Positions 15,105 to 56,598 of a DNA stretch of 64,000 nucleotides are shown one piece after another (the first letter of the stretch is position 1; every line of letters starts with the position of its first letter). The translations under genes were made by a program, and so were the position numbers. The stretch covers positions 19,406,001-19,470,000 of the forward strand of contig JANJGN010000022.1 of NCBI GenBank assembly GCA_026770705.1, read 5' to 3'. Below the pieces are notes generated by a model. The model saw only the letters and a program-made list of their open reading frames with translations, did not search any database and was not told the origin of the DNA. Source of the DNA: Isurus oxyrinchus (Eukaryota).

Positions 15105-15240
15105 TTAAAGCAAAATTCTGCAGATACTGGCAATCTGAAATAACAAATTGCCAGTGGTACTTAGCTGGTCTGGCAGCACCTATTGAGAGAGAAAAACAGA
15201 GTTAACGCTTCGAGTTTTTCCAGCACTTTGTTTCTATTTC
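15105..15240 (-). mobile_element. Penelope-like 3' tail fragment fused to an inverted piece of its own tail
   Basis: ...aaacagagttaacgcttcgag (half hammerhead, minus strand) directly followed by gagtttttccagcactttgtttctatttc (plus-strand tail). Confidence 0.55.
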
Positions 15241-18866: not shown

Positions 18867-20046
18867 GTAAGGTTGTTGTGTGTGACTGTGTAGATTGGGT
18901 AGTTTTGAAGACAATGTCACAAAGTGGCAACATGAAACTACTTAAATTTAAGAAGTGCTTGGCAAACAATAGTCTGAATTACAGTTTAACTACTTTCAAT
19001 TTTACAATGTCTTTTGTTTAGCAGAAAATTAAATTTTGCATTAAATTACATTTGATGCAACTAATGTTTGTGCTGTCTATGTAACATTAACTGCATTTCA
19101 AAGTAGTTTATTCCATATTGTGATATTTCAGAAAAATTTGATAAACCAAATCAATGCAAACCTTTCCTTTTTATATCTGATACTCGACAAGAAAAATGGG
19201 CTGACAATTGGTGACATTTCATTGATTCATGGAAATGCCCAATGGCTAGCTTTGTGGAGACTGTGGAAAATGTCATGAAGACTACAGGAAATGGTTTGAG
19301 TTATGCAGAGCTATGTTGTAATTATGCAGAAGGCCTCCATCCAATTTTTAAAAAATGACTTATTGTTACAAGTTCAAGTTCTTGTCTGAAATATTGTTTC
19401 AGGTATAGAGGTTCCAGTCACTTCCATAAGCAGTCTGAGTGTTATATGTTTGAGGGCATGGCCATTTTGCCCAATATCTAATTAAAGCATAACCCAGCAG
19501 TGTAAATAAATATTCATGTCTTTTGCACATGTTCATTGGAAAGATTGAAGAACCAGTACTTATTGAGACAAGGCCAGATATGAATCATCTAAGCTGCTTT
19601 ATTTCACAGCACCAGAACATAGAGGCAAAGATTATGATCAGATTTCCTTATTTAAAGTATTACATTTGCATTTGCATAATAATACAAGTGATGAATATGC
19701 TATGCCTCATAAACAGCAAGGCATCTTGTTCCATTAAGGTAATTTCTAACTATCCCTTCACTCTCTAACCTTCTCATAACCTTCACTGGATTTGACTTCT
19801 TTGTTGCTTTTGTTTTCATAAACCAAGCTGACTCCACAGCCATGCTGGTCCTGGCTAACTGACCCCTCATATGTAGGTCTCTTTTACTTCTGCCACATCA
19901 TTAATTGGGGCTTGGTTCCTGCATTCCCCACCCATTTGGGGTTGACCAAAAAACTGCCAACCATGACTACTACTGCATTGCCCCCACACCTTGAAACCAG
20001 CATCATGCGAAACTCATCAGGAATGGCCTATCCAACTCTTGACATG

Positions 20047-20151
20047 TAATAAAAACAGTAAATGCTGGAAAAACTCAGCAGGCTTGACAGCATCTGTGAA
20101 GAGAGAAACAGTTAACGTTTCGAGCCCATATGACTCTTCTTCAGAGCTTCA
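20047..20151 (-). mobile_element. 105-bp Penelope-like hammerhead + tail insertion
   Basis: Flanked by the direct repeat tgacatg (20040-20046 / 20152-20158); tail resembles 39235-39300. Confidence 0.75.
20110..20148 (-). ncRNA. Minimal type-I hammerhead ribozyme motif with canonical core
   Basis: Minus strand AGCU-CUGAAGA-A-GAGUC-auaug-GGCUC-GAAAC-GUU-AACU: CUGANGA/GAAA core, 5-bp stem II, palindromic ACGU in place of stem III, stem I 3 of 4 pairs. Confidence 0.7.
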
Positions 20152-22299: not shown

Positions 22300-23835
22300 G
22301 AATCATTGAATTGGTAGGTAGAAAAGTAACACCATTGTTCAAGAAAGAAAGAGAGAAAACAGGGAGCTACAGGCCAGTTAGCTTGATGTCAGTTGTTGAG
22401 GAAATGCTGGAATCCATTAGTAAGGAAGTGGTAACACAGCACTTGGAAAATTGTAATATGATTAGGCACAGCCAACACAATTTAATCTTAGGGAATAGTG
22501 TTTGAAAAATCTATCAGAATTTTTTGAGAATGTTACTACCAGTGGATGCAGTATATTTTTCAAAAGGCATTCAATAAGGTGCCACATGAAACATAGCTGC
22601 ACAAGATAAGAACTCATGGGGTTAAATTAGTTAAAAGATTGAAAGCAGAGAGTAGGAACAAAAAGCTCAATTGTTTAAAATCTGTGTTAATGACTTAGAT
22701 GAGGAGACCAAGTATAATGCATCCAAACTTGCTGATGAAGCAAAGCTGGGTGGGAAAGTAAGCTCCGAGGAGGATACAAAAGAGTCTGCAAAGGTATATA
22801 CATAGATGAAGTTATTGGGTGGCAGATGGCATATAACTTGGGGAAAGGTAAGCTTATTCACTTTGGTAGTAAGAATAGAAAAGCAAAGTACTTTTTCAAT
22901 GGTGAGAAACTATTAAAATTTAGCCTTTTGTCAATTAATTTCTCTTGTCCTCACCCTATCAGAGACCTTCCCTTTTATTCTTTACCTCTTTCCCCTTCCA
23001 TTGACTCAAAACCTATTCCATTTCTATCTTTATTCAGCTCTGAGAAATGGTCATCTCAGCCTGAAACATTGCTTTTGTTTCTCTCCACTGACGCTGTCTG
23101 ATTTCCTGAGCATTTCCAGCATTTTTTGATTTCATTTCAGATTTCCAGTATCTTGCTTTTTGAGCTATCAAATGTTGCTGTTCAAAGATTTGGGTGTCCT
23201 TGTACAAAGTTGGTGAATGCAGGTACAAGAAGCAATTAGGAAGGCAAATGGTATGTTGACATTTATTGCAAGGGGTTTGGAATAAGGAAGTTTTGTTGCA
23301 ATTCTAAAGAGATTTGATGCGATCACACCCAGAGTAGTCTGTGCAGTTTTAGTCTCTGTAACTATGGAAGGAAATGCTTGCCTTATAGTGGGTACAATGA
23401 AGATTTACTAGACTGATTCCTGGAGTAAGAGGGTTGTCCTTATGAGGAGAGATTTCATTGAATAGGCCTATTACTGTCTGGAGTTTAGAAGAATGAGAGG
23501 CGCTCTAATAGAAACATTTGATAGGATAGATGCCGAGAGTTAAAGGGGCATTGTCACAAGGTAAGGGGTTGCCCATTTAGGACGCTCATATAAGGGGAAA
23601 TTACTTCACTAAGAGGGTTGTGAATCTTTGGCATTCTGTACTTCAGAGGGCTGTGTGTACTCAGTCATTGTGTATTCAAGACTGAGATTGATAGATTTTT
23701 GGACTCTTAAGGGAATCAGGGGCTATGAGGATGGGCGTGAAAATTGATTTGAGGTTGTAGATCAACCATGATTTTATTGAAGGGCAGAGCAGACACTAAG
23801 GATCGTATGACCTACTGCTCATATTTCTTGTGCTC
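22300..23835 (+). mobile_element. 5'-truncated, degenerate CR1 LINE (RT and 3' end) with a nested Penelope-like fragment at ~22918-23163
   Basis: VTPLFKK..KTGSYRPVSL, SKLADEAKLGG, CR1 tail gatcaaccatgattttattga...cctactgctcatatttctt; nested insert flanked by ctattaaa/ctatcaaa. Confidence 0.8.
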
Positions 23836-29051: not shown

Positions 29052-30559
29052 GTAGGTACCCATAGAAATATTTCTGTTTATAAATTATGATTGAATGCAA
29101 CGTTTTCAAATGCAATAGATTATGTGTAGCACACTGTTTAGAAATGTGAAAATCCCTCTCAATATAATGAAAGGTAGTGAAAATTTGAAGGGCGTAGTAA
29201 GAGATTGTTCAGAAGTCTTGATAGAGCTGTACTATTAATGCAATGATGAATTGTTTGTTTTGTTTCCTTTACAACATAAGTTCCTTGCAGCCACCCAATT
29301 TTGCACAAGGAAAACAAACAAAATGAACAATACCTTATTGGTAATGCCTTGTTCACTGATGTGTAGCCAGAATTCACAGAAACCATTTTGGTGACAGAAT
29401 TATTTGCTGCCTTAATTGTAAATATATTTTTCAGGCATTGCAGCAATACGAGCATAGTGGTACTTTGACATAATGCCAGTGTCCTTGTTCTGTTTTTGTG
29501 TTAAAGTGGGGAAGGATCCCTTGCTTCGTTTTTTAAAAATGGCTGCAAGCTGTTTTTTTTCTGTTTGTAAGATATTATACACAAGGCAGGGTACATGACT
29601 TTAGAATTCTGTTCTATGAAGTGGGGAAAGTAACAGTTATTAAATTGCAATAATCACATTTTAGTAAATGTAAGTGTTGTGAGCCATCTGTGCAGATGTT
29701 TGATCTCATTTCATATAGCTATGATATTCGCAATGCATAGAAAGTGAAATTAAGTGTGTTCAACAAATACATTCTTATTAAAAATGTTGTGAGTTGTATC
29801 ATCTGTTTCTTTTATAAGTCTATGAAATGAGCAGGTTAAAATTACATAAATTGTGAGTTTTACTTTATTTTAAAGTATGTATTAAAACCCAATATTTAAT
29901 GACATTTAGTTTGATTGTAAAGTAAAAGAATTTATCCCATTTTTCCTGATTTGTAATATATTTACCCAGATTCACAAGGAATATTTGTATCATGCTGCCC
30001 TAATTTCCAGATTTTTTTTTTACTTGGGTATGGTTCTTAATGTTTATCCAAAGTATAAAATAAGACTTTTAAAAGTGCACCGAAAGCACTTGACCGTGAC
30101 CATCTTTTCTCAACATTGGAGTCAATGAAACATTTGGACTTAAATAATATGAAATTTGTGTATTGATGCACGCGATAGTTTTGACGTCACAAATGGGAAT
30201 ATGAGTCATCAAGCATTATTTTGGTCAGTAAGTGGTGGGCTGGGAGAGGAAAATCTAAAATGAGAAAAATATACATTTTAAAAAGTTGGCAAGTAAAGTA
30301 ATTGCTTGGCTTGACTATGTTGGTCCTCTTCATATATCTCATGCAGTCATTTAGGACCAGATTGATGCTTCATGTTCCTCATGAATAGAATTTCCAGTAG
30401 CAACTGTATTATGGAAGATGTGGTGAGTAAAGACCAAGAAACAATCTAAAGGAAGGAGAAGTGAATGTAAGCGTGCATTGATCAAATCCAAACATTGGCA
30501 ACTCCTAGGCTTCAGCAGAGTCTATGGCAATGCCAGCTACATGCTGTCTGTGCTGGAGA

Positions 30560-30862
30560 ATAATACAATAGGAATAGGAGTAGGTCATTCAGCCCCTGAA
30601 CCTGTTCAGCCATTCAGAACATGATTGACTTAATTGTATCTACCTGCCTTTGATCCAAATCCCTTGATGCCCCTACCTAACAAAAATCTGTCGACTTCAG
30701 TCTTTGAAAAGTTCAATTGACCCAGCTTCCACAGCCTTTTGGGAAAAGAGTTCCAGATTAGCACTACTCTCTGCCTGAAAAAGCACTTTCTGATTTTACT
30801 CCTAAATGTCCAAGCTCTAACTTTCAGATCATTCTCTTTTTTTCTGGATTTTCCGGAAGTCA
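30560..30862 (-). mobile_element. CR1 LINE 3' end fragment
   Basis: Minus ORF RKCFFRQRVVLIWNSFP...FSKTEVDRFLLGRGIKG (CR1 ORF2 C-terminus) followed by the tail. Confidence 0.8.
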
Positions 30863-31770
30863 TTTAGAAGTTATTTCTCTATACTAAGCTTTAAAAAAAT
30901 ACTTAAAGAATAACTTTTGTATGACTGATGCTATTTCTTCCAGTTTTAACATGAGCCTTTTGTGTTTAGGCCTCAACCTGGTTTGAAAGGAAAGATTGTA
31001 GCTTAAGGCCTTTTTCACAGTAGTTTATTTCCATTTATCTTAAGGACCAAAACATTCTTACAGTACTCTTTTAAAAGATATCTTGAGTTATATGGGGAAT
31101 TACCTATAACGGTCACTCAGTTAAAAGAAAGTATTTATAATTACATTAATTACAGGTAACGACCTAGATTGACAAAGTGACAACACCCTGTTCTTGCGAT
31201 TTAATTAGAGCCTTGTATCTATATGTTTGTTTAGGAATGGGTCTTAGCAACCTGGTTTTCCACTTTTGCTTGCCGGTTCTTGATTTGTTTTGCATTTATT
31301 TCGATGGATGGAAAATTGCAGACTGCCAAGTGCAGTAGCAGAAAACCTCAAGTCAATGTTTTTACAATTGCTGTATCTGCAAATTGTCTGCAATATTTGT
31401 GTGGAAGTGTTGAAGTGGATGTGGTTATTGAGGTGAGACACCTTGTTTTTAAATTATCAAAATGTGCACAGGCTGTACAGTACAAAATTCAGCTTTTCCT
31501 TGAAAATAATTGTGGTTTAATCTTGACTTTTTTTTGTCAATATTGTTTAGCTATAGATGAATTAAGATTAGCTTTAGTGCTGATTAGCCGGACTGAATTA
31601 TACTGCCATCTGATTTCATTAGTCATCAGTGTTGTCAAGAGGAGACTAACAGCACCACTTGCATTATTCTGCACTAAAAAAAACATTGACAAATATGTGT
31701 AGAATTATATAATTGCTACCGTCATAGTTGTGTTTTCTGGTGTAGAAATTTTTAGCAAATATAGATGATA

Positions 31771-31861
31771 GCGAGGATTTTGCGGCAGGACCAGAAATTC
31801 CCACCCGAAGTCAATGGACCTTTGGCAATTCCCCCAGAGGCGGGACCAGAAAATCCCAGCC
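31771..31861. mobile_element. About 90-bp Harbinger-type mini-MITE
   Basis: gcgaggatttt ... aaaatcccagcc inverted termini. Confidence 0.5.
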
Positions 31862-32075
31862 GAAGTGTGTGATTGTATATAGGTATGATATTAGAATGAA
31901 TTTTACTATATATTTTTGCTCCTTCACAATACTACGTTGAGCAATTCATCTAAGCCAAAGCATTCCTTGTTTCACAAGCAAATTTAACATTTTTGTGTAA
32001 GCAACAATAAAAACAAAATTAAAAATCATGCATTATGACAAAACGTGAATTACTTTTAAGACTTATAAATGCATG

Positions 32076-32773
32076 GGGAAATATTTTACAGTCCCCTGCT
32101 GGTGGGGTTGCTGGTGGGGAGGCCTGTAAATAGCCCGAATGACCTTCCTGTTGACCTGTTCACAGTTTTCATGGTGGAGGCAAGGCCTAGGCCCCAATTG
32201 AGGCCCATACACAGCCAATTTTGATGCTGGTGGGTGCAGTTCAGGGGTAGAGGGAAGCCAGGCCGTTCAACCTTCATAGGCTTCAGCTGGAAAGGGGGGG
32301 GTGCCTCCCTCAAGGACCCCCTTTCCGCATTTGGGTACTTCCACCCCCCCCCCACCCCAACCATGGAGATGCTTCCTTCACCAGCACCACCCAGCCCTCC
32401 TCCGCCCCCCCCCCCCACCACCTCCCGCCTCCATGCATCTCTATTAAGCCCTGCACCCCCCTCTGCACACATTCCCAGGCTTCACCCTTCCCTGTCATGA
32501 GACCCCCCCAACCTTGCATTTAGCTGGTCCTGCATTCTGGGACAGAATTTGGGGACTGCTCGTAGTCCCAGTCTTGGCCACTGCTGCTACTGGCACTGCT
32601 GGGTGTACAGAGCTGCCAGCCAAACTGATCAGTTGGCAGCTCTCTGAGGCAGGATGGGTGGACATCCTGTTTCCAGCCAGTTGCTGTGGGCCTTCAGTGA
32701 TCAGTGGGAATGCATTTCCTGTTGGCTGTTTGGGTGGCAGAGTGGGAAACCCTACCACCTGAAAAACCTTGTT
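32076..32773. mobile_element. PIF/Harbinger-type MITE with a 3-bp TSD (ATG)
   Basis: atg|gggaaatatttt ... aaaaaccttgttc|atg; C-rich body; resembles 13724-14393. Confidence 0.6.
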
Positions 32774-33999
32774 CATGGTTTCTTTAGTTCTGTCACAATA
32801 ATTAAGAGATTAAAACAGTTTTATTCGTTTCGCCTGAGCTAGATGTTCAAAGGGGGGCCAGTGCTGTTGAATTCAGCTGCAAACATTTTGTGGTTTTTGT
32901 TCAGCTATGTGTTTGGCAGCGTTTCATTTTAATTACCTGTTTTTTAAACCTGTTTGGCCCCAGTTTTTCTGGACAGTACAGTATTTCTTAATTTGACTGG
33001 TTGTACTTGGAAAGTCTTTCTAAAGCATTTGGAAAGGGATAGGACAGATAACTTAGAAAGGAAAAGAACTGCCATGTAAGAATGCATGATTTAGCATTGT
33101 AGTCACAATTATCTGTTTTTTTTTTTCCTCCTTGCCCTAAGAAATAGTTAGGGTTTTGCAGTTAAACTTGTGTTGCATCATTGCTACTGTTGATTTATTC
33201 TTTTACTGTTTAATAATTTTTGGCTGTTAAAGCCTAAGTCAAAGTCTAGTTATACAGTAAAGTGCTGCCTTTTGCAACTTCCTTGTTCGCGTTTGCACTT
33301 ACCTGCACTTTTTATTTGGTACATTGCATCATCCATCTTGTGAGCCATGTTCACTAATTTGGGTTTGAAATGTCCAAATCTCTGCACTGATTCTTTGACA
33401 AGCACACTCTTTGAGCACAGCTCAAACGTGGGATTGGTTAATTTACCCTAAGATATCAGTTTCATCATTAATTAACTTTGCAGAAGATCTTTGAAAGCTG
33501 AGTTTAACACTATTAGACGTGATCTCCAGAGTATTGAAACGTCAGTAAGGAACTCTGATGGATTGGAATGCTATGTTGAAATGGAGGATATAACAAATAA
33601 TTGTTGGGGCCAGTTACTCACAGACTTACTGACATCTTTGTGAATTTATTCAATTGGTCTTAGAAATCAACTTTCCTGCTCCAGACCATTATCCAGTAAC
33701 CCTGGTAGAAGTGCATGCTCGTAGATATAGTGAGAACAATTTGCTGCAGAGTAACTGCCCAAACCAGTGCTCCCCTCGCATGGCTGGAACTTATCTAATT
33801 GAGTCCCATTCAAAAGCATGTTCCTGGTTCGCGATTTCGCTGTTTGCAAGGTTTCGCAGAAATGTAACCCCCGTGAACAGCATGACTTTACTGTACCAGC
33901 AGAAACTGTTGGAAATACTCAGCAAAGTCAGGAAGCATTTGTGAAAAGAGAAATGGTTAATGTTTCAGGTCAGTGACCTTCCATCCCAGCCCAGTATAT

Positions 34000-34359
34000 T
34001 TTTAGTCCGCTGCCTCCCAAAGTTGAAGAAGAAAATTCGCCAAGGCTCCTTAGCACCTTCCAAACCCACGGCCACTACCATCTAGAAGGATAAGGGCAGC
34101 AGATACATGGGAACACCACCACCTGGAAGTTCCCCTCCAAGTCACTCACCATCCTAACTTGGAAATATATCGCCATTCCTTCACTATCGCTGGTCCAAAA
34201 TCCTGGAACTCCCTAACAGCACTGTGGGCGTACCTACACCAAATGGATTGCAGCGGTTCAAGAAGGCAGCTCACTGCCACCTTCTCAAGGGCAACTAGGG
34301 ATGGGCAATAAATGCTGGCCCAGCCAATGAAGCCCACATCCAGTGAATGAATAAAAAAA
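34000..34359 (+). mobile_element. 3' end of a CR1-group LINE (same family as 55530-59321), preceded by a degenerate minus-strand Penelope-like tail at ~33897-33990
   Basis: ...gggatgggcaataaatgctggcccagcc...cccacatccagtgaatgaataaaaaaa. Confidence 0.8.
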
Positions 34360-34689
34360 CTGTGAATGCAAGCGATAAAAATAGTCATGAAATTACAATG
34401 AAGGTGTTTCTCTGTACGATTCTTGGGAATGGTACAAATAATTGGATATCTGTGCAAAATAAAGCACTCTCTAGTATAGAAGACAATGAAGGCTTACTTG
34501 CAGATGGATCTGAGATGTTGAATCCCAAAAATGTAATGAGGGTGAGAGATTTATTTTTTAAATATACTTAGTGGATTATTTTTTATGCTTATCACCAAAA
34601 GGAATATCAGTCCTTGGAGAACTCAACACTTTTTTGTCCAGGCATCAACATCATGCACTTTCAGGTCAACAACTTGCACATTTATTTAT

Positions 34690-37480
34690 TAGGAGGAGTA
34701 TTAAAAGCTTGGTCAAGAGTTAAGTTCAAAGGAGGGTTGGTGAGGTGATGAGGCAGAGATTTAGGAAGGAAATTCCAGAGTTTAGGCCTAATCGCCTGAT
34801 AGCACAGTGCCAGTGTGGGAAAAGGGTGCAAAAGAGGCCTGAGTTGGAGAAGCATAGCGATCTGGCGGGGGGTGAAGGAGCTGGTATGGCACTGGTGGAG
34901 ATTATAGACATAGGAAGCGACAAAGCCATGGAAAGTTTTGAAATGAGGTTGAAAGTTTTAATTTTGAGGCATTGGTGAACCAGGAGCCAATGTAAGTCAG
35001 TGAACACCGGTTTTAAGTGAGCAAAGACTATTTGGGTTAGGATATATGAGCAGAAGAGTTTTGGAATAGCTAAATTTTGTGAAGGGTGAAAGAAAGATGG
35101 TTGGTTGGACAATGAACTTTTAAAATAGTAGAGTCTGAAAATAACAAAAGCACAGATGAAGACTGATGGGATGAGGTAGGGGGGAAGAAGATTGATGTTT
35201 CAGAAATCGAATAGAAGTAAGTGGTCTTTCTAAGGGAGTGGATATGAGCTCGGCAAGGTTGCAACCATATCAGCATGAGACCAAAGAGGGGAATGCAATT
35301 AATGAGGAGGGAATGGAGTTTGTGGCAGGAGCCTAAAACAATGTTCCTAGTTTTTAAAAGGAGAAAATTGTGACTCCTCCATGATTGGATGTCGAACAAG
35401 CAGGTTGAGGAGGCAGAAGCAGTGGAGGGGCTAAGAGCAGTGGTAATAAGACGGTTTAAGCATTAGGGTATGTGTGGAACCTGATGTCACTGAGGGGCAG
35501 CATGTAGAGAGAGATACACTGGTTGGATAAGTAGGCAAAAACATGGCAGATGGAATACAATCTAGCAAGTGTGATGTTTTCCATTTTTGCTAGGAAAAAT
35601 GAAAAAGCAGAATATTTTTGAATGTTGAGGGACTGAGAAATGTGTGCATTCAGAGTCCTGGGTGTCCGTATACATGAATCATGGAAAGTTAACATGTCAG
35701 TACAGTAGGCAATTAGGAAGGCAAATGGTATTTTAGGGGCCAGTGAATCAGAATAAGGGATTGACTATTTGGGACTGAGATAAGGAGAAATTTCTTAACT
35801 CAAAGGGTTGTCAATCTTTGAAATTCTTTAACCCCAAAGAGGTATGGATGCTCAGTCGTCGAGCACGTTCAAAACAGAAGTCAATAGAATTTTTGGGTTA
35901 TAAGGGAATTAAGAAATGTGATGGTGCAGGAAGCTGAAATTGAGGCACAAGATCAGCCATGATCTTATTGAAAGGCAGAGCAGTTTGAAGGTCCAAGTGG
36001 CCTACACCTGCTCTTATGTCTGAAATAGGATGGGCCAGGGATAGATCTCTGAGTCCAGAGGTAGTGGTTCAGTGGTGGAAAGGGTAGCCATTGCAGGAGA
36101 TTGTGACTGTGACAGAATAGTCAGGAGTTGAACCAGACAAGGGCAGTCCGGTTCATCTGAATAACGGAGGTAAAAACACGATGTCTGCAGAGAGGTTAGG
36201 AATGATAATCAGCTGCCAATAGAGGAAAGAAGCTGGGGGTTATCATAATTTTCCGAGTTGAATGGAAAAAACTTGCACATCTACAGGGAAAATTTGCATG
36301 CCTCAGGAGAGGAGCTAGCTGAGTTGTTCTTGCAGGAAGCTGGTACAAACATGATGGATCTAAATGACCTCCTTCTTTACTGTAACCATTTTATGATCCT
36401 GTATTGTGGGCAGATGAGATCAGAGCCTGATAATATTTGATGCGATCCAGCCAGATCTGCTGATGAATGGCTCAACCAGTTGTGTGCTCAATACATTCAA
36501 ATTTGAATCCCTGTGACTGTAGAGAAAAAAACTGGGGGCCACAGTAGGAGGAAAGATCAAGGAGGGACAGAGTAGTGGCCTTACTGTGGAGAAGGGCATC
36601 AGATATGAAGACGAGGAGGTGATTGAGCAGATCAACAACTGCAGAAGTATTGTGGGGAATGGCTGGCCAAAGGCTAGCTCGTTGGGAATTTAAAAGTACC
36701 ATTATAAGCAATGGGGCAATGATGGGGTGAGTGGGGGGCAGTTTTCCTAGGGACCAATGAAAGGCATTTGGGAGGCATGGGTGCTGACTGATGTTATTCC
36801 GATCCCAAGCCAGTTGGTGAAGTAGGAAACTAGACACTAATACTTCACTTGATCATGGGTTTATTCACTGAATGCAGCATTACATGTCTGTTGCTTACCT
36901 ACCAATCCAGTGTCCCAACAGTCTCTCTTTATACTCTTTTGAGAAAATCAAACTAACAAATAAAATAAAATTAAAGTGCTAGCCCCTTAAAGGGGCAATG
37001 TAACAAATGACAGAAATCTTAAAGAAAACATCAAATCAAAACAGAATGTCATTTTGGGGGCCAATGATGCACTCAAGCCCCTGCAGTGCAGTCTCTCTTT
37101 TTCAGTGCTCTAAGTACTTAATTAAACAATGCCCTTCACCTATGTATCTTAGCAATATAACTAATATACCATTAACAAGGGATGCAAGGAAGTATTGAAA
37201 GGCGGCCTTCTTTGTGATTGAGACAAAGGGAACAGAAAGGCCACACAAGATGGTAAAATTGAGGGGATGGGCATGGGTGGGAGAGTTTTCATTATGTGCA
37301 GTTAACTTTTTTAAAAAAGGACAAAATGAGTTGAGATAAAGGTTGAAATCCACTAGGATGAGGAGTTGTTCAATGTAAAGGCTGAGGGAGAAAGAAATGA
37401 CTGTTTTAGGGAGAAGCTCACTATGGGGTCTGTAAGAATCCAGCAAAAGGTGACAAACGTGAAAGTTTCCCCACACTGTC
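34690..37480 (-). mobile_element. Fragmented L2 LINE interrupted by plus-strand CR1 3' pieces (~35520-36020 and ~36260-36400)
   Basis: HLKPVFTDLHWLLVHQCLKIKTFNLI (L2 ORF2 C-terminus) and LLILVDFNL (endonuclease GDFN) on the minus strand. Confidence 0.65.
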
Positions 37481-39234
37481 AACTGTGTTTCTATGTAAAT
37501 GAGCTTTAATTATGTACCCAGCCCCTATATTAATCAATCTTCTAGGCCCATTTTGTGCATGTATCTTAACTGCCAACTTAAATCAGACCATTTTACAAGT
37601 TTCTGCCTCCTGTTATTACATCTCTTAATCAAAACATCAGATATAACAAGGCCTGTGGTGATGGGGAAGTGACAACAGGAACAGGTTGAGGATGATACTG
37701 GCAGTCTTCAGTCATAACCCTGCACACAGGCAGCCTCAGGGTGATGGAAGGACTGCACAGATCAGGGCAGATGTGGAGTTTGTATTCTCCTGAGACAACA
37801 GAGCAGACCTGTTCAGGTTCCGTGCTGATCTCCCCAATCCGGGAAAGGAAAGGAACCCTAAAAACAACCTGCTCTCCCTGCACCTGCCAGGTTACTGCTC
37901 CTGGCTAGTCACCTGTTCACTGTGGTCGAAATGTAAAGACATTATATGAAGCTTGGTTTATTGAATGTCTGAACACTTATAGACAACAATATGAGACTAG
38001 AGCACAGAACAGTCCTCATGCTGGGCAGGTACGACATTGACATAGCCACCCGAAGTGAAACGAGGCTTACTGAGGATTTTTGACGAGGTTGGTGCGGGCT
38101 ACTCATTCTACTGGATTGGCAAGTCCAGGGATCAATCTCAACAGTCAGGCGTAGGCTTTGCTATATGATCTGAACTGGCACGCAAACTTGACTCACTTCC
38201 TACAGGGATCAGTGATTAACTCATGGTTCTTCATCTGCGCCTTGCCAATAACCAGCTTACAACACTCATTTGTGTCTATGCTCCGACGATGACACATACA
38301 AATGAGGTCAGAGAAGCATTCTATGATGACATCAGCAAGATAATTAAAGGAGTACCCCATCAGAACAAATTCATTATTCTTCGTGATGTCATTGTCTGAA
38401 TGGGCATAGGCTGTAATACATGGAGGGGAGTTCTGGGACACCATGGTATTGGAAGAGCAAACTCCAATGGCCAGCTCCTTCTCTCCAAGTGCAAGGATTT
38501 TGACCTGACCATCCCTAGCACAGTCTTCCAGCAAGTACACAAACTAAAAACAACATGGATGCAACTCATAGATGGCACATGGTGGGCTATGTAATTATGC
38601 CACCTCAACTACATGCACTCCACCCATTGCCTTGGAGGTGAAGAATGCTGGTCTGACTATTTATCTTGGCTTGTTAGGAGTATTGTATCTTTGAAGAAAG
38701 ATTCTAAGGCATTTCGGCAGAGTGTCAAGCCACAAGGGAAGCTTGATGTAACTGTCCTTGAAGCTATAGTCGAGAAAAGAACTGGAACACAAACTAGCCA
38801 CAGGAATTGCTAATATCCTGGAGGATAATATTGCTATTGAAGATATTGGAAGAAGTTAAAGGATGTTACTTACAGAATAGCAGCTGAGGTCCTAGGATTC
38901 GTTAAACAGAAACACCAAGACTGGTTTGACAGCAATGACCAAGACACAGGCAAGCTTCTAAATGAACACTCACAGATCTTACATACCTGACAAAAAAATC
39001 ACCAGCAAGGAACACCAGATACCATCACACAAAACACATGCTGCAGGCGAAGCTAAGAGAAATCAAGAACTGATGGTGGGAAAACAAGGCTGATGAGCTA
39101 CTAATAAAAAAAATGACCTAAAGGTTCCACACACAACTCTGCAATCAGTCTGTGGCCCCAAAACCAACAGTGTGACACCCATCCTCCCAGCAGATGACAA
39201 TCAGCTCCTAACAAATAGACATGAGATGGTCTCT

Positions 39235-39807
39235 AACACAAAAGAAAAACAGAATTTCTTGGAAAAACTCAGCAGGTCTGGCAGCATCGGCGGAGAAGAA
39301 AAGAGTTGACGTTTCGAGTCCTCATGACCCTTCAACAGAACTGAGTGAATATTAGGAGAGGGGTGAAATATAAGTTGGTTTAAGGTGGGGGGGTGGGGAA
39401 GGAGAAATTGGGGGAGTGTGTGGTTGTAGGGACAAGCAAGCAGTGATAGGAGCAGATAATCAAAAGATGTCTCAGACAAAAGAACAAAGAGGTGTTGAAA
39501 GTGGGGATATTATCTAAACAAATGTGCTAATTAAGAATGAATGGCAGGACACTCCAGGTACAGCTCTAGTGGGGGTGGAGTGGAAAGGCTAACAGGGCAT
39601 AAAAGATATAGATTTTAAAATAATGGAAATAGGTGGGAAAAGAAAAATCTATATAAATTATTGGAAAAAACAAAAGGGGGAAGAAACAGAAGTGGGGTGG
39701 GAATGGAGAAGAGAGTTCAAGATCTAAAGTTGTTGAATTCAATATTCAGTCCGGAAGGCTGTAAAGTGCCTAGTCGGAAGATGAAGTGCTGTTCCTCCAG
39801 TTTACGT
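39235..39807 (-). mobile_element. Penelope-like element 3' fragment: end of GIY-YIG ORF, pseudo-LTR, hammerhead and tail
   Basis: Minus strand RKLEEQHFIFRLGTLQPSGLNIEFNNFRS* (stop 39717-39719); flanked by the 8-bp TSD tggtctct (39227-39234 / 39808-39815). Confidence 0.85.
39304..39342 (-). ncRNA. Minimal hammerhead ribozyme motif with variant core CUGUUGA
   Basis: AGUU-CUGUUGA-A-GGGUC-augag-GACUC-GAAAC-GUC-AACU; stems I and II fully paired, GUC triplet. Confidence 0.6.
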
Positions 39808-39824
39808 TGGTCTCTTGTTGGGCA

Positions 39825-40925
39825 TGTTATGATCCTAGACCAGACCTCCAAGTTTTCAGTAAGATCTGTTGGGGACCAATGAAGTTTTGTTTAAAGTAAA
39901 CAAAGTTTGAGATTCAGTGCATTTACTAAGAGAATAAAGCCACAAAATTCCATGGGTTTTGAACAAAGGAAAATTAAATTTTTCGATACAAGATCAGAAA
40001 CTTAAAACACTTACGATATCTATCTTAGAGTATAACATTCAGGGTAACAATGAGGTACATGGGAATTAACAGGCAAACAGTTGTTGAACACACCACACTG
40101 CATTATAAATGGCAGGTGCAACCAAGACAGAGTCCAGAGATTTTTCAACAACCCAGCTGTCAGTAAACAGAGTCAACCAATCTGGTTGAAACTCTGTCCC
40201 CGTCATGAGGGATCCCAGTCTTCACCTTCGAAGATCTAACCTTGGAATTCGCTCCAAAAGTTGCTCCAACTCGGATGGCATCAATAACTGCTCACATTGC
40301 AGGGTTTCAGTCTTGCCTCCTGAGATTCTGTTCCTCTGGATTCCCGACTATGCAATCAAGCACCAACTCACAAGCACAACTTCTGCTTTTTGGCTGTGCC
40401 AAGCAGGATGCTACTGCTCCAAAGGGGTACCTTTTGCCCCAGTGGTCCACAGCTTGGAATCACTAATCTTCAGCTGCCTTCCTGGATCTTCAAGGCTTCT
40501 CCTGAGCCCTTTTCAATTGCCAGGGCTTCCCCTGAGCCCTTGCTACTTAAAGTCTGCCAACTGCACCCCTTTTGTTTGCTTGGAGCCTATTTCTCTGCTC
40601 CTCATTGGCCTTAACTGGGACCTGTCTCTGTCTCCCGTCTCTGTCCCCTGCCTGGGACTTCCTTTGGGACCTCCCCTTGTTCCCTGCCTTGGACACTTGT
40701 CTGCAGTGGTTCGCTGTTCCCGGTCACATGACCTGGGCTTGTGTGTTGATATCCCTTCCAGCACAGGCGTGCTGGGCCTGTCCTCGGCCCAAAGAACTTA
40801 AATGCTGAATTGCACAGATGCAGCCCGCTCCCAGTCCGTGCATGCGCGGAAACGCTGAAGCCTGTTGAAACTTGGGAGTACCCGACCTTTGCTCTCGACG
40901 AGATGGTAAATTGGCTTTCATAATG
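39825..40925. mobile_element. Probable solo LTR (about 1.1 kb) inserted in the RTE
   Basis: Starts TGTTATGA and ends TCATAATG; near-TSD ggca/agca; the RTE-like peptide (W...SNLLNQLS) continues across it. Confidence 0.6.
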
Positions 40926-43715
40926 AGCAGGGCCCATCAGCAATCTCTTAAACCAACTATCCATAGTGAGCAATGAAACCAGCAGCTGATGGCACCCTGC
41001 CTTAAGTACTCAAGTTTGGAGGGACTCGCATGGAAACTCACTAGTCTCTTCTGCCTAATCGAGAATCCGGGCTCTGTACCTCAAGCTTACAAAGATGCCT
41101 CCATAACTCGTCTCTATAAGCAGAAAGGGAGCAAGTCCATCTGTGACAGTCATTGTGGAATATCTCTTCTTTCGATAGCAGGAAATATTCTTGCAAGGGT
41201 TATTCTTAATTGGATTATCATTCATATCATAGATTGTGTACCCAGAATCAGTGTGGCTTCCGTGCAGGATCATGAACAGTAGACATGATCTTTGCAGCAT
41301 GTCAAATTCAAGAAAAGTCTCACGAACAGAATAAGGACCCCTTTTATGTGGTGTTTGTTGAACTGACAAAGACTTTTAAGACAGTAAGCCAGAAAGGCGT
41401 TTAGAAGATTCTGTACAAACATAGCTGCCCTGAAAAGATGATTAGTGTCATCTTTTTCATGATAGCATGATGGCCAGCATGATGCAAAGTGGTACATCAT
41501 CAGATGCTTTTCCTGTCACCAACAGCACTGAGCAAGACTCTGTTTGCTCAATATGCCTCGGCCTTGCTGCAGTACACTCAAAGATCTTGACACAGGAGTA
41601 CACGTTCAATTCAGGACAGACAACAGCTGCTTCAAATTGCAAAGGCTCAAGGTTTGCATGAAGGTTACTTAGCAGCTACTGAGTGAACTCTTGTTTGCAG
41701 ATGGCTGGGATCTCTTGGCACATACTCGGGAGGACATTCAACTATTTGTTGATCACTTCGTCCTAGGCTCAAAACACATTGGCTTGACAATGAGATATTT
41801 TCTCAACCCACCCCTGGCCACATACTCCAAAACCCTTCAGTCACTATCACTAACACACCCCTCCATTCAGTATAGAAGTTTTACTATCTTGTGAGCATCC
41901 TCTCCAATAACACTATGCTGGATGACAAAATCAACCATCACCTGGCAAAAGCAAGGTCAGCGTTTGGCAGGCTCACCAGCAGACTTTGGAAAGAACCACT
42001 ACCAGGCAGTGGTTCTTGCATCACTTCTTCAACGGTGAGAGATTTGGACACCCAACCAGCATCACGTAAAGCAACTAGAAGCATTCCATCTGTGCCATCT
42101 GAGATCTATTTGCAACATCAGGTGACAGAACAAAATCCACAACACTGAGGTTCTTGTAAAATGCTGCATACCTGGCACCGAGAGCATGCTCATCAGAGCT
42201 CAACTTCACTGGGTCGGTCATGTGGTTCACATAGAGGATTTCCGCATACCAAAGGCAGTACTCTACAGCCAGCTGAGCATGGAAACCTGCACCACAAGAC
42301 ATCCCAAATTTGGATATAAAGACAATCTGAAAGCCAACCTCCGAACTTGCAAGCTAGATCCCAATACATGGGGGAAAAGACAAACTTGGACAGACCCAAA
42401 TGGAGAAGTCTCTTCATCAAGCAGTTTTGACATTTGAGGAGAGCAGAGTCAATACCTTCAGGACAAGTGAGCATGGCACAAAACCAATGCCTCCATCCAT
42501 CCCTCCAACACTGACAATCAGTTATGCAAATTGAGACTTGGTCTAATGTCACTCATCAAAATAGACTGAAAACCGTGTTTTTTTTTGCTGAAAACTCATG
42601 TGTCGAAGTGATGGGAAAATCCATCACCTAGGCTGCATAAATAATATAACAATATCCTATCCCAGTATGCCACTCAATCAATCCTTTTAAAAAAAACTGA
42701 AGTATTCGCTATAACTTTTTTTAAAAGATACTGATTTTAGCACTTATCCTTTTAAACAAAAAACTTACCGGAATATAGTATTAAACAAGTGGTATTCTTG
42801 TAGCAACAAGCTGGCACGTAATATTTTATTTCTACTGTTTTTTAGAAAAAAGACGTTGAATCTTACGATGATGTACAGCTGTTGGCAGAATGTTGTTTCC
42901 TGCTGATTTCTCTGTATGAGGAAGTAGTTCCCTTTGTGGTATTTTTGTGCATTTTTTGGTTGTTTACTAGTTTGCGACTTACTCTTTTGTGGGGAGAATA
43001 AAAATGGGATAAAATTATATGACAAACATTGTCCTACATTGTGCTCAGTCTTCTAGTTACTTTGCCTTAATGTGAACTGTAGTCCAAAACCGTATTTAAT
43101 GTATAGACAGCTGGAGAAGGCTTGAGGAATTGTTGTCAACAGCAGCTAGACTCTAGTAGTCGTTGAATAGCTGAACTGACTTGGTTAGGCAAACAACAGT
43201 GTTTTTAAATGTTTCAGTGGGCCCTGTTAATCTCCAGCATTGGGGCATCTTTTCTATGAATTGCAAAACAGTCCACTAAGAGGGTAAAAAATTCTTAAAA
43301 CGATTTCTGGAGAATGATGATTTCTGATTTATGTTTCCATTTTCTTTGCGGGGTGGGATAAGGAGGCTTGTGTGTGCGGTGCCACTCAAGGAGGAACTGC
43401 AGTGCTGCAGTTGATGTAAGAAAAAAGTGACTCTGCTGTCTTTCTCACCAATGGTGGCATGCTGCTAGGCACAGACAAAAAACATGATCATTTGTGTACT
43501 GAATAATTGCAGCATTCCCCTCCACCTTAGATTGCTATTACAGGTTTTCTCCAGCCATTGGGGAATAATCATCATGAAATTTGATGTTAAACAGAGTTTT
43601 ATGTAAAAGGAAATTTGATTCTTTTTCACTGTTCCCAAATAAAAGCTTTGAAAGGCGAAAATCTCATTCAATCCTGTTTGTCTTATCTGACCCAATTTCT
43701 TCTCTTCTCTTACAG

Positions 43716-44874: not shown

Positions 44875-47613
44875 CAGTGGTTCTCAAGCTTCTTTGATTA
44901 AAGGACCCCTTTTCAAATAGATTAGTAATCATGGACCCTCCCATCTAAATTATAATACTGCATAATGCTCATAATATGAAAATGCTGCATGTAAAGAGTC
45001 TTTTAGTAATGCTTTTAAGAAAACAGGTGTTTACTTACAGATATCTGTGAGGTGGGTGTCCCTGTTTCTCACTGCAGAGTCTACCAGTTCTTGGTGTGAT
45101 GTTTGGCAATGACATTCGTAAGTCAAATCTCCACTTTCAGATCAACCTGCACTTTGTCTTGAATGCTGTCAAAGCAGAAAATGATGTTTAACAAATTGTA
45201 AGTTTTTGGGAAAGGTAGCAACACATTCATTGTTTCATTCACTAATTCTGGCTACTTTGCAGCAGTGGATGGCCAAAACTGTGAAGGTGTTTGTTTTTGC
45301 ACGTTAATTTTCAGTGAGTGGTCACAGGACAGTTCCACCCATTCCTCTTTCACTTTTCCACTTCAGCCACAAAATGACATAGCAAATGTTGAAAATGAAT
45401 CCTAAACCTGATCGGACTTATCAATTTTTATATTTTAAAAATCGACGCTGAAGTACTCTGCCAATGTTGCAAGATGAGCAATGGTCCTTTCTTTCATGCA
45501 ATTAGCTGTCATCGTGTTTGCATCCAAAACACAGCCAGCAGCAGGAACATGCCTGAAACTCCGTTGCTCAGTCTAATTTTCCAAATCTCAATTTTGTTCC
45601 TCAATGTTGCAGTCTTGTCACTAGCTCGAGCATGGTTGTATTGCCCTTTGTATTGATTTGATTCAGAGTATTGACAGGTTAAAAATGTCAGCGACGTATG
45701 CAAAATTTGTTACCCATATGTGATCAGAGAAGTTTTCAGCTAATGCAGGATTGTGCTTAAAAAAAAGTTAGAAGCTGTTTATGAAGCTCAAAAACTTTTA
45801 CTCTGCCCCGAGATAACCAATGTTCTACAATGTGAAACAATTTTCATGTCCTGCACCCATTTCTGAACACTGCTTTGCAAACAAACATGAATTCACAGGT
45901 TTGGACTTCACAAAAGTAACAGCTCTCGTATTTGCATTGAAAAGAGCATGTAATTCAGCTTCCATGCTTTTTGAAGTAAGGGCTTGGCGATTCAGCATAG
46001 TTTTTGTCACAATTACCTGCTGCTCTTTTTTTCTTGCAACACCATTCCTTTTGCCTGCCATAGAGTGAGCACCGTCTGTGCAATGCAGCATTCCCACTTA
46101 AGCTCCCACTCTGATTCCATGAAATTATTCAGTAACTTGATATTTCCTCAACAAAAACAGAAATACCTGGAAAAACTCAGCAAGTCTGCCAGCATCGGTG
46201 GAGAAGAGCAAAGTTGATGTTTCAAGTCCTCATGACCTTTCAACAGAACTGAATATTTCCTCACCTGTTGTTAATTCTGGTAACGCCTGACAAAAATGAA
46301 AATCTTTGAAAATTTCCCCTAATCAAACAAAGCACGCTTAAACTAATAATTGTGCTGTACCACCAGTATCCATTGTCTCATCCAGCTGAATTGCAAACTG
46401 CTCACATTCACAAAGCCTTTCTGACAATTGGCATTTTATGTCTAAGTTCCTTGATTCTTCTACCAACTCGGCCATTAGAAAATGGTTATGGCCTTCACCT
46501 TTTGTGCTGCCTTTCAGTCACCATCACAATTTTGCAGCAGCTTTCTACAGCAGCTGGAAGAATCAGCTCCTCTCCAATAGTGTGGACTTGCTTTCTTTTA
46601 GCAAACCAAATCCTGTTAAGAGAGATGTTTTCGGGGCCTTTTCCAGAACTGATGTGATATTCGTCACTTGAGTTTTCTAACTGTTGTTTTGCTTTCTTCA
46701 TTCAAAGAAGTCTTTCAATTTATCTTCATATTCCAGCTGCTTTGTTTTGGGGTGTCAATGCAGTTTTGCATATTTCATTGCTTCATTGGATAAAATATTG
46801 AAGTACACAACATATTGCAGCCATCCATCACTGAGATCCATAAATCCGAATCCCGTATAACTCTCCTCACACTTTCTGTTCTTCATTTGATCCTCATTAA
46901 TGGACTCCATATTGTCCGTGGCTTCAGCTGAACTACTTGCAATGGCACTTTGAGGCCGTTTTAAGTACTTTTCTATTTTAAAATAATTTACTCAAAGACT
47001 ATCATCAATCAGCTTTTTTAAGGGTGTAACTGTTATACAGAAGCACAGAGTTGTCAGAATGACATACAACAAAACATGTTCCAAAGGTAATGTATACTTT
47101 TATTTGTTTTTGCATTTGCTCTATATGGCAACTGTGAACTTTCACAGTGCATGTTGGGGAGTTTATAGGTGCTGTAAACAAGAAGTCACTTTTGCAGCTA
47201 CACTTGTTAATATGGCTGACTTTAGGAAAATGGTGCTCTCGGCAAACTTGTATTTTGGCATCTTTTCTTTGAGTTTAAATATATAGTACCTTTGACGTAA
47301 AACTCACCACCAATCTTGGTAACTGTGATTCAAGATGGCAACTTTGTGTTGTGCTCAGCACTCATCTGTTCCTCAACCACCCCCCACCCCACCCCAACCT
47401 GCTGCCAATTTGGTGGGTGCATTCCGCTCCTGGTTTGTACCAAGCCCATCTCCACCCATTGCTCATTCTTTTAATCTTGATCATGGCCCCCCTGACCATT
47501 GCACACTGGGTGGCTGCTCACCCTTAAGGCCAACCCTGCTTAGTAAGCACATTATTTCATAGACCCTGCAGAAAGTCCCTCGGGGTCTATGGACCCCAGT
47601 TTGAGAACCATTA
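44875..47613 (-). mobile_element. hAT Charlie/Buster-family DNA transposon with a degenerate transposase
   Basis: TIRs cagtggttctcaagct / agtttgagaacca; minus-strand motifs LSNEAMK, HTIGEELILPAAV, CTDGAHSMAG, NRQALTSK; TSD not recovered. Confidence 0.85.
46151..46252 (-). mobile_element. 102-bp Penelope-like hammerhead + tail insertion (hammerhead at 46212-46250)
   Basis: 11-bp TSD atatttcctca (46140-46150 / 46253-46263); minus strand AGUU-CUGUUGA-A-AGGUC-augag-GACUU-GAAAC-AUC-AACU. Confidence 0.8.
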
Positions 47614-51989: not shown

Positions 51990-52960
51990 TGGATAGCATT
52001 ATGCCATTATGAGAGCATCCTAGGCAACCATGTGAGCTGCTGCTGGTGCCATGGCCATGTCATGTTCCTCCTCCTTTCTACATTGCTGCACCTGCAACTC
52101 CAATCCTTGCTGGTTTGTATTGAAGGGTGATTACAAATCTGTCAAGGCACCCAAAGCTTCAACATGCCTATTACTTGCTCTAAAACACATCTCGTCATAT
52201 TATGGCTTTGATTATAGCACTCTTGCGTCTTATTGCTTGAGCTCCTCCCAGGTGTCACCAGCCACACCTAAGTAGATAGTCCTTGTCTTTAAGCAACCAG
52301 TTGGTAATTCTGTTCCGAGGTGCCAGCATCTCTGGGAGGGTGAGCTGGCAATGAATGTATCATAGCAGTTGCCAGGGAAACTTGCACACACCTGTGAAAT
52401 GCTTTTGTGGTTGCGGGCAAGCTGCACATTGACGGAGTGGAAACCTTTACTGTTCACAAACTCATTTGAATGCCTTGATTACCATGTGTGCAGACAATGC
52501 TGTCCTACACCTTTGGGGAGCCAGCCAGAGCTGCAGACTTAAGCTTCCGCTCATTCTGACTGTTTGCATCAGTAGCAAAGCGTATATAACTGCCTTGGCT
52601 GGCAAACATGGCATTTCACATGTGTGATGCATTTTATGGGTGACTAACTGCAGATTCCTGCAAATATCTCCTGCAGGTCCCTGGAAGGAGCCTGTGGAAA
52701 AGAAGTTGAGAGCAGTGACCATTTTGACAGTGACTGGTAAAGCATGACCATCAGATCCCCTTGGCAGCAGGTGGTCTTCCACCAGGTTGCTAATATCTGC
52801 GAAAACCTGACAGGATATTCTAAGCTTCCTGAGGCACTGGTATTCAGACATGTCCAGGACACTGGTCCTGTGCCTATATATACCCTGTGTTGTCGGTATC
52901 ACCTCTTGCAAGCTGTACCTCCATGCTCATCTGAGATCCAAGGTAAAGCAGCGTAAGCAG
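51990..52960 (-). pseudogene. Harbinger DDE transposase (HARBI1-like) remnant
   Basis: [59 protein letters not shown] (GDxGY-like); frameshifted. Confidence 0.85.
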
Positions 52961-54885: not shown

Positions 54886-55682
54886 CTTAGCAAAAGGGGG
54901 ACTGGCTGATAGCTTGTATTAGAACATTACCTTTTCATGTCTAAAATTTAAGTTGTTAGATCTGATGGTAGTGTGTGAAGAAGGACTGGGTAAAATGCAC
55001 TCCAGGAAGGTTGGCTTTTTTATCTGATGATACCTGCCTCATGCAGCGTATTGGACCAATGCCCTCAACTAGAAATCAGTTGATATCAAGGTTAAAAAGA
55101 CTGTGTCTTTTGTAGCAAGCTGACTTGTCATCTGTTCTTGAAACTTCTGATTGCTTTGAAGCTCCCTGAATGAAATTTATAATGAGTTTATTTTTTAAAT
55201 GATGTGTAACATATCAATGAAAATAGAGATTGGCAGTGAAACCTAAATGACAAAGGGGAAAAATCTATATGTGAGCATTTATGCAATACAATTCTGATTT
55301 CAAAACATTTAATCTTGCCAAAAGAAGCATTTAAATTGATGCATCTAACAAGCTGAGATCATTATTTATGTTCCTACTTGTAGGTGCTGTTTCTGAGCTC
55401 CAAATTGCAGTTATTTTGTGGCACTTTACATTTTTGGATCATTAAAAACCTGTCTGGCAATTTCAACATGTTGAAATGATGATGACTTTTCTACCCATAC
55501 AGTTCGTGGCAAGCATCTAGTATTAATTTTTAAAATTCATTTATGGGTTTTGGACGTTGCTGGCTAGGCCAACATTTATTGCCCATCCCTAATTGCCCTT
55601 GAGAAGGTGGTGATGAGCTGCCTTCTTGAACCACTGCAGCCCATGTAGTGTAGGTACAGCACTGTTATAAAGCACTGTTATA

Positions 55683-55942
55683 TATATTGTTTGTCTACAC
55701 AAGCACCTCTGTCTCTCTCTCTATCTCCCCACCCCCCCCCCCCCCCCCCCCCCCCCACACCTTAAACCAGCTTATATTTCAACTCTTTCCTGGACTCGAA
55801 ATCAAGTTCTGTCGAAGGGTCATGAGGACTCGAAACGTCAACTCTTTTCTTCTCCGCCGATGCTGCCAGACCTGCTGAGTTTTTCCAGGTAATTCTGTTT
55901 TTGTTTTGGATTTCCAGCATCCGCAGTTTTGTTTTGTCTTAT
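55683..55942 (+). mobile_element. Penelope-like pseudo-LTR 3' fragment with hammerhead
   Basis: Tail nearly identical to the reverse complement of 39240-39390; TSD cactgttata (55673-55682 / 55943-55952). Confidence 0.85.
55805..55843 (+). ncRNA. Minimal hammerhead ribozyme motif with variant core CUGUCGA
   Basis: AGUU-CUGUCGA-A-GGGUC-augag-GACUC-GAAAC-GUC-AACU. Confidence 0.6.
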
Positions 55943-56598
55943 CACTGTTATAGAGGGAGTTGCAGGATTTTGGGAGTGAAAGAATGGTGATATATTTCCA
56001 AGTCAGGATAGTGAGTGGTTTGGAAGGGAACTTGCAGGTGATGATGTTCCCATGTGTCTGCTGTCCTTGTCCTTCTCGATGGTAGCAGTCATGGGTTTAG
56101 AAGGAGCCTTGGTGAGTTTCTGCAGTGCATTGTGTAAACAGTACAAACTACTGCCACTGTTCGTCAGTGTTGGAGGGAGTGAATATTTGTGGAAGGGGTA
56201 CTACTCGAGCAGGCTGCTTTGTCCTGGATAGTGTCAAGCTTCTTGAGAGTTGTTGGAGCTGCACTGATCCAGGCATGTGGAGGGTATTCCATCACACACC
56301 TGATTTGCCTTGTGGACTGGCTTTGAGGAGTCAGGAGGTGAGTTACTCGACGCAGGATTCCTAGCCTCTGGCCTGCTCTTATAGCCACAGTATTTATATG
56401 GCTAGTCCAGTTCAATTTTTGGTCATGGTAACCCCCAGGATGTTGATAGTGCAGGACTCAGCGATGGTAATGCCATTGAATGTCATTGGGGATGGTTAGA
56501 TTTTCTCTTGTTGGAGATGATAATTGCTCGGCACCTGTGGCGCGAATATTACTTGGCACTTGGCACCTCAAGCCTGGATATTGCATTTGGACATACAC

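Follow-up and report, generated by a model that had tools for sequence, protein, structure and literature searches.

Minimal hammerhead ribozymes were described by Cervera and De la Pena in 2014 in the pseudo-LTRs (pLTRs) of Penelope-like elements (PLEs) across metazoans, with no activity for monomers and low activity for dimers (PMC4209133). These motifs are of type I with an extra base after A9, and the criteria given for them include a stem II of 3–7 bp and a stem I no shorter than 3 bp; Table S1 and Fig. S3 of that survey list no cartilaginous fish (PMC4209133). The role of PLE hammerheads in vivo is still considered open (PMC7761336; PMC8557442). Type-I hammerheads related to those of PLE terminal repeats are also carried by the non-LTR retrozymes of vertebrates, which Li, Clavereau and Pollet reported in 2026 in one chondrichthyan; of nine Xenopus dimers that they tested, eight showed no cleavage (bioRxiv 10.64898/2026.07.22.740005).

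The 64-kb stretch of shark DNA analysed here (hereafter the window) holds a dispersed family that resembles the PLE motifs of the 2014 survey in its type-I topology, its short stem I, the additional base after A9, G10.1–C11.1 closure, GAAANNUH stretch, palindromic positions 15.2–16.2 without a stem III, location 3' of an ORF, mostly dispersed solo copies and several subfamilies (PMC4209133). With the Neptune EN+ PLEs as presented by Craig et al. in 2021, it shares a C-terminal GIY-YIG domain, a hammerhead close to its 3' end, truncation on the 5' side, neighbouring copies in inverted orientation and an optional tail of 30–40 bp (PMC8557442). It is unlike the described minimal motifs in that the focal subfamily carries U at position 6 (U6), whereas CUGANGA is required by the 2014 descriptor and A6 is what Fig. 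S3 shows (PMC4209133). A natural change at this same core position is known from the hammerhead of phage Bcep176, but there the base is C and not U, in a single phage motif with demonstrated low, Mn2+-favoured activity (PMC3088659; PMC7151607), while the focal family is a high-copy minimal motif known here from its sequence alone. The tandem arrays of non-LTR retrozymes also differ from the window copies, which are dispersed, flanked by TSDs and linked to a PLE ORF (bioRxiv 10.64898/2026.07.22.740005).

The element type and the motif are already published, and what is added here is a high-copy shark example with a U6 subfamily. As the focal motif lacks one defining feature of minimal hammerheads, A6, it is a variant and not a proven ribozyme. 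Our best overall explanation, in which we have good confidence, is that the copies are truncated PLE 3' ends with a hammerhead of inherited U6. We found no literature on PLE hammerheads in sharks beyond the 2026 preprint, and shark or U6 motifs may be included in the supplements of that preprint, in Repbase/Dfam or in a 2017 study by Lunse, Weinberg and Breaker. The last of these, going by its title, reportedly concerns small PLE-associated hammerheads that cleave as dimers.

The focal insertion and its protein relatives

The focal insertion, at 39235–39807 on the minus strand of the window, is a 5'-truncated PLE copy that lies antisense within the last intron (29055–43703) of TBC1D16, a gene with eight coding exons at 3099–43952 on the plus strand. 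The protein encoded by these exons in the window was identical to that of the basking shark at 96.8%, the bamboo shark at 93.8%, a chimaera at 92.0%, a marsupial at 85.2% and human at 81.5%, these being five of 120 listed homologues, which marks the host as a shark. An 8-bp TSD around the copy had been proposed and was indeed found, with AGAGACCA on the minus strand at 39815–39808 (39808–39815, 5' copy) and again beyond the element tail at 39234–39227 (39227–39234, 3' copy); the element shares the last three bases of the 5' copy, as microhomology at the truncation point. From its 5' end the insertion consists of the last 29 codons and stop of a 5'-truncated PLE RT/GIY-YIG ORF (39717–39806), recognised by homology to the whale-shark protein P0018 and elasmobranch relatives, followed by a pyrimidine-rich 3' UTR (39343–39716), part of which is common to the copy at 55805, a minimal type-I hammerhead-like motif (39304–39342), identified by descriptor and by pairing of its stems, and a conserved tail (39235–39303) without the final unit of ~30–35 nt that is found in the 55805 copy and in ~16,000 reads. 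The stop codon lies ~374 nt upstream of stem I, in agreement with the ~370 nt originally given between the GIY-YIG C-terminus and the motif, but the peptide does not end after NIEF as had been stated, its frame running on via NNFRS to the stop.

Read on the minus strand from 39342 to 39304, the motif comprises AGUU (stem I), CUGUUGA, an extra A, GGGUC/GACUC (stem II), GAAAC and GUC, and AACU (stem I). Positions 39342–39339 pair with 39307–39304 in stem I and 39330–39326 with 39320–39316 in stem II, with C3 at 39338, the U at position 6 at 39335, the extra A at 39331 and G12 at 39315; cleavage is predicted 3' of C17 at 39308.

A search with the 30-residue peptide from the window yielded 17 proteins among 1.84 billion representatives, and of the seven that were looked up, five belonged to whale shark, skate or ray and two were unrelated repetitive proteins; P0001, P0003 and P0016 were set aside as such. 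Using residues 24–104 of P0009 to look for longer proteins, we obtained four matches, including P0018, which combines an RT stretch (RVT_1, below the Pfam cut-off) with a CX4CxxC linker and, above the cut-off, a GIY-YIG domain. In PLEs a CX2-5CxxC linker marks the Neptune and Nematis clades (PMC8557442), and the linker of the Neptune EN+ type is seen here in the relative P0018, the window holding only the last 29 codons of the ORF. Zinc-finger-like linkers of this form were found in the relatives P0018–P0020, the corresponding region of the element lying outside the window, and no PLE-type RT, zinc-finger linker or second terminal repeat was present within it. Pfam matched no family to the window peptide alone. 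The proposal that this peptide is the C-terminus of a Penelope GIY-YIG protein was nevertheless borne out, as 17 of 28 residues (61%) were identical to residues 424–451 of P0018. Judged from this relative, the element appears to be an EN+ PLE, probably of the Neptune clade.

The PLE endonuclease peptide was also contained in P0006, P0007 and P0008, predicted proteins with VKOR, GPCR and ATP synthase c domains, being C-terminal in the latter two; in these elasmobranch annotations it would be due either to faulty gene models or to PLE ends that became exonised.

Copies of the motif across the window

The four copies of the 39-nt motif first noticed as well preserved, at 39304–39342(-), 46212–46250(-), 55805–55843(+) and 20110–20148(-), were all confirmed, with stem II pairs exactly as initially given. 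The second U6 copy (55683–55942, plus strand, 260 bp) contains UTR, motif and full tail between 10-bp TSDs at 55673–55682 and 55943–55952. The third (46151–46252, minus strand, 102 bp) begins 2 nt ahead of stem I between 11-bp TSDs and has lost the stem III palindrome (CA). The fourth copy (20040–20151, minus strand) belongs to another subfamily, begins 3 nt ahead of stem I, has a canonical CUGAAGA core and is flanked by a candidate 7-bp TSD found by eye. All four have GAAANNUH, a 5-bp stem II and an unpaired base between A9 and 10.1; three of the four have G10.1–C11.1 closure, replaced by A–U in 46212, and three have the palindromic CG at 15.2–16.2. Each U6 copy has a stem I of 4 bp, the published criterion being at least 3 bp, and in 20110 this stem has a C–A mismatch. 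No copy of the four begins at the predicted cleavage site.

With a profile trained on these four copies, which match it by construction, we found ten matches of at least 13.6 bits in the window including the training copies, the best match in 20 locally shuffled windows having 5.7 bits. The earlier figure of about ten copies in 64 kb thus stands for the element tail but not for the hammerhead, the full motif being kept in only four. Six further loci had been listed as decayed, and two of them do retain a decayed motif, namely 23040(+) (profile match at 23031–23141, with G8 changed to A, stem mismatches and upstream UTR present) and 33960(-) (profile match at 33898–33994, with stem II AGGUC/GACCU), whereas the other four need correction. 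Only the 3' half of the motif or the tail remains at 15200(-) and 60220(-), with neither CUGANGA nor stem II, the first being a profile match to a motif 3' half and tail at 15158–15237(-) that adjoins an inverted tail fragment (15212–15237, plus strand), and the second a decayed, tail-only profile match at 60177–60231(-). The locus given as 13690(+) matches the profile on the minus strand (13621–13689), head to head with a plus-strand remnant, so that 13621–13730 is a fold-back of a minus-strand motif with tail and a plus-strand decayed motif. The locus at 2650(+) was rejected as a family copy, its 4.4 bits falling inside the shuffle range, and a tail-only profile match at 14398–14465(+) had been overlooked. 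No full-length or tandem copy of the element was found within the 64-kb window, all copies being solo and dispersed.

Some further features of these copies were noted. At 13621–13730 and 15158–15237, the 5' end of a truncated copy abuts an inverted piece, an arrangement known from PLE insertions, and 46151–46252(-) and 20040–20151(-) are short TSD-flanked copies starting 2–3 nt before stem I. The leader of the 55805 copy (55770–55804, plus strand) repeats part of the 3' half of its motif (the GGACTCGAA stretch) and could pair with the 5' strand of stem II in competition with the hammerhead fold; the leader of the focal copy differs. Among the few copies within TBC1D16 introns (3258–43703), the well-preserved ones at 20110 and 39304 are antisense to the gene and the sense ones at 23040 and 14398 are decayed.

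A near-equivalent of the published minimal-hammerhead descriptor gave no match in the window, and one (20110) when a stem I mismatch was allowed. With position 6 freed, there were three matches with perfect stems, all of them U6, against 0.03 expected per shuffled window. U is thus found at position 6 in three of the four good copies (39304, 46212 and 55805) and the canonical A6 core in 20110 only, and none of the ten window matches combines a canonical core with intact stems. The core as it had been written, CUGNNGA, does match the copies but conceals that U replaces the conserved A6 in three insertions.

These counts bear on whether the likeness to hammerheads could be a matter of chance, which we consider highly improbable. 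In favour of chance, an Rfam scan of the window gave no hammerhead family among 12 matches with E up to 10, a plain CTGANGA...GAAAC pattern occurred at chance level (two matches against 0.97 expected) and stem covariation was not significant. Against it, the structural descriptor gave three to four matches against 0.03 expected, all within the PLE-end family, the three U6 copies being related and not independent; in an alignment of six copies, 90.7% of the stem cells are paired, compared with 13–51% when the stems are slid; and the position at the PLE 3' end, the extra base, G10.1–C11.1 and the palindrome fit the published consensus (PMC4209133). The minimal motifs simply fall outside the Rfam hammerhead models. 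As for covariation, double changes at two of nine pairs were reached by 40 of 500 shuffles in these six related sequences, and the covariation score by 10 of 500, a level attainable from kinship without structure, so that the covariation over the six copies is no more than suggestive. It is likewise suggestive that subfamilies have G–U, G–C or A–U at the second stem II pair, and the change of C11.1 to U in 46212 sits in a CpG and is compatible with CpG decay.

Beyond the window, a 29-nt tail pattern had no match in viral, metagenome or GTDB contigs, and a 21-nt tail pattern gave nine and four loci, all 13 of which were rejected as chance, having no upstream hammerhead and no matching tail.

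U at position 6 and predicted folding

The three U6 copies differ from each other at 3–13 of 101 bases and each lies inside its own TSD (8, 10 and 11 bp). Because all three diverged copies in separate TSDs share U6, this base was very probably inherited from the source element. Among the 40 of 162 variant rows from the reads that were listed, none fell in 39260–39342, which by our reading only limits any alternative base at position 6 to roughly 58% of reads.

Deep mutational scanning found low activity for all changes to the CUGA turn apart from a C3–G8 swap (PMC9901934), and A6C lowered kobs in 0.3 mM Mg2+ from 0.30 to 3.6e-6 per min (PMC7151607). The A6C variant is active in Mn2+ and in higher Mg2+ (PMC7151607), and U6 therefore need not be dead. 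A search of the literature found no measurement of an A6U hammerhead, the term being met only in a twister paper. By analogy with these variants, we would rather expect U6 dimers to cleave far worse than A6 dimers.

We also used structure prediction on the motif, which contributed little. For an isolated 39-mer with U6 and U7, stems I and II were predicted with the core paired into a rod (P 0.87), the probability of which dropped to 0.13 with C7, as found in 55805. In a context of 100–190 nt, stems I and II were predicted for none of the U6 copies, while 20110 retained stem II. The idea of a core locked into a rod by U6 was accordingly weakened, as the rod hinges on U7 and U7 may be CpG decay.

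An alternative to a slow or dead core is that U6 represents an active natural variant, with tandem or trans dimers cleaving after GUC in vivo, aided by Mn2+, chaperones or an element protein, and thereby processing the precursor RNA. All three U6 copies keep the rest of the core, and their two stems are intact or still paired, which could mean continued selection for catalysis, and in 39304 and 55805 the other core bases, G10.1–C11.1, the ACGU palindrome and both stems are all intact; the natural A6C variant, moreover, keeps low activity with Mn2+ rescue (PMC3088659; PMC7151607). However, canonical minimal-hammerhead dimers are themselves weak in vitro (PMC4209133), stem I is just 4 bp with no evident loop–loop contact, and the foldings predicted above, namely the U6/U7 core rod and the missing stems I and II of U6 copies in longer context, also speak against an active variant, which we hold to be unlikely.

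Copy number in reads and spread of the family

Reads from four of 24 listed runs were aligned to 39200–39850 at 80% likeness. In two raw DNA runs, the depth was ~65,000 and 61,000 over the tail, 40,000 and 39,000 over the motif and 23,000 and 25,000 over the ORF end, with 0–11 in the flanks, and it was at repeat level in every bin throughout 39222–39815. Scaled per million letters read, this corresponds to at least 33–35 copies per Mb of the tail, ~21 of the motif and 12–13 of the ORF or endonuclease end, these being lower bounds with older copies left out. Contigs with the element are present in two runs presumed to be RNA, which says nothing on its transcription, strand or level.

Together with the homology to P0018, this depth upholds the claim of a high-copy family of Penelope-like ends bearing minimal type-I hammerhead motifs, and we assign the repeats their PLE and hammerhead identity with high confidence. 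Of the term high-copy ribozyme family, used in the preliminary description, the copy number (~21 per Mb) stands; activity is doubtful, since the main subfamily is U6, a canonical core and intact stems are not combined in any of the window copies, and each of these is a lone copy of a motif needing a dimer. The label of anonymous SINE, which repeat annotation had been expected to give, is not supported either, the focal copy having ORF sequence and ~12–13 read copies per Mb reaching the endonuclease end.

The reads also extended the element on both sides. In run X23, 10,541 reads continued past 39810 into one upstream sequence (agreement 0.96), which on translation by hand was in frame and contained an LGLLHC stretch resembling P0018; as the reads continue the ORF beyond 39810, the focal copy is therefore 5'-truncated. 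At the other end, 15,963 reads ran 3' of 39239 into a unit that is missing from the focal copy and present in 55805, resembling the optional 30–40 bp tail of PLEs (PMC8557442). At 39342, 11,384 reads changed to the leader found in 55805; at 39296, 7,205 departed into the 20110-like subfamily; and opposite-strand joints were seen at 39341–39342. No start or end place in the reads, the cleavage site included, held one fifth of the molecules. That copies derive from cleaved RNA ends was thus unsupported for want of a dominant read boundary, with six loose ends per run listed from more than 2,000 rows.

The uneven depth, with tail (33–35 per Mb) and motif (21 per Mb) above the ORF end (12–13 per Mb), would also fit an independent, non-autonomous SINE or retrozyme family sharing only its end with PLEs, as would short copies of 102–112 bp with their own TSDs. 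However, 5' truncation and tail sharing among subfamilies give a 3'-rising depth as well, the copies in the window are not in tandem arrays, Rfam finds no tRNA or other RNA-gene head at the copies, and the ORF is continuous with the focal copy inside one TSD, which makes such a family improbable.

The junctions are also relevant for another possibility, in which the hammerhead fold persists because it serves a non-catalytic task, such as marking the 5' end of a short template RNA, stalling the RT or binding a PLE protein, with U6 tolerated or even favoured as a hairpin stabiliser. Of the four well-preserved copies, two have their 5' end 2–3 nt ahead of stem I, with no copy starting at the cleavage site; the reads have inverted joints at 39341–39342, and in silico A6/U7 in the focal stem II background favours a misfold whereas U6/U7 forms stems I and II. 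On the other side, only two copies start near stem I, the joints at 39342 may just mark the end of homology to the reference, where the 11,384 reads switch leader, and the predicted rod depends on U7 (0.13 with C7), itself perhaps the result of CpG decay. We regard this explanation as doubtful, although a non-catalytic role can coexist with a dead core.

For truncated PLE 3' ends with an inherited U6, the preferred explanation, the following course can be proposed from PLE biology. The GIY-YIG nuclease would nick the target and the RT would copy the RNA starting at the tail, with an early stop leaving a TSD-flanked stub; the TSDs and the truncation are what we observe. Each stub bears the minimal type-I hammerhead located in PLE terminal repeats, and as its stem III is only the self-complementary ACGU, it could presumably act only where two copies meet, for example in a tandem precursor RNA, as has been published for other PLEs. 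Several subfamilies have a common tail and different stem II, and the abundant one would have received U6 from its source element, most likely as a slow or dead ribozyme. Because the U6 subfamily spread anyway, efficient cleavage was probably unnecessary for its amplification. PLE clades without canonical hammerheads likewise reach high numbers, as noted by Craig et al. (PMC8557442). We take the solo copies of the genome, among them the focal one antisense in its intron, to be most likely inert.

A successful subfamily with a changed core, next to A6 subfamilies having the same tail, offers a test of whether cleavage matters for PLE mobility, and genome counts based on CUGANGA can overlook an abundant family. 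It is conceivable, if rather doubtful, that U6-core source elements gave ~20 copies per Mb with selection still acting on both stems, on the rest of the core and on the palindrome. The motif would then be an active natural U6 hammerhead, the first of its kind, or else a fold retained as a non-catalytic RT signal. If true, the A6 subfamilies in the same genome would serve as controls in a natural experiment on the need to cut.

Other repeats and open frames were also present in the window. Another dispersed repeat family occurs at 16097–16223, 34053–34362, 55521–55657 and 55954–56107, and the 55805 PLE stub appears inserted in one such repeat, as 55535–55657 and 55954–56107 match adjoining parts of 34053–34352. 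An open frame of 325 codons at 57241–58215(-), which resembles a LINE ORF2 remnant, is accompanied by an inverted duplication (57051–57197 and 57879–58025, 147 bp, 90%), and one of 154 codons at 52465–52926(-) resembles a decayed PIF/Harbinger transposase. A tRNA-like Rfam match under the gathering score (24.1 of 29 bits) at 59256–59317(-) is possibly a tRNA-derived SINE head, and an inverted repeat of 66 bp (89%) is formed by 12499–12564 and 13085–13150, ~520 bp apart.
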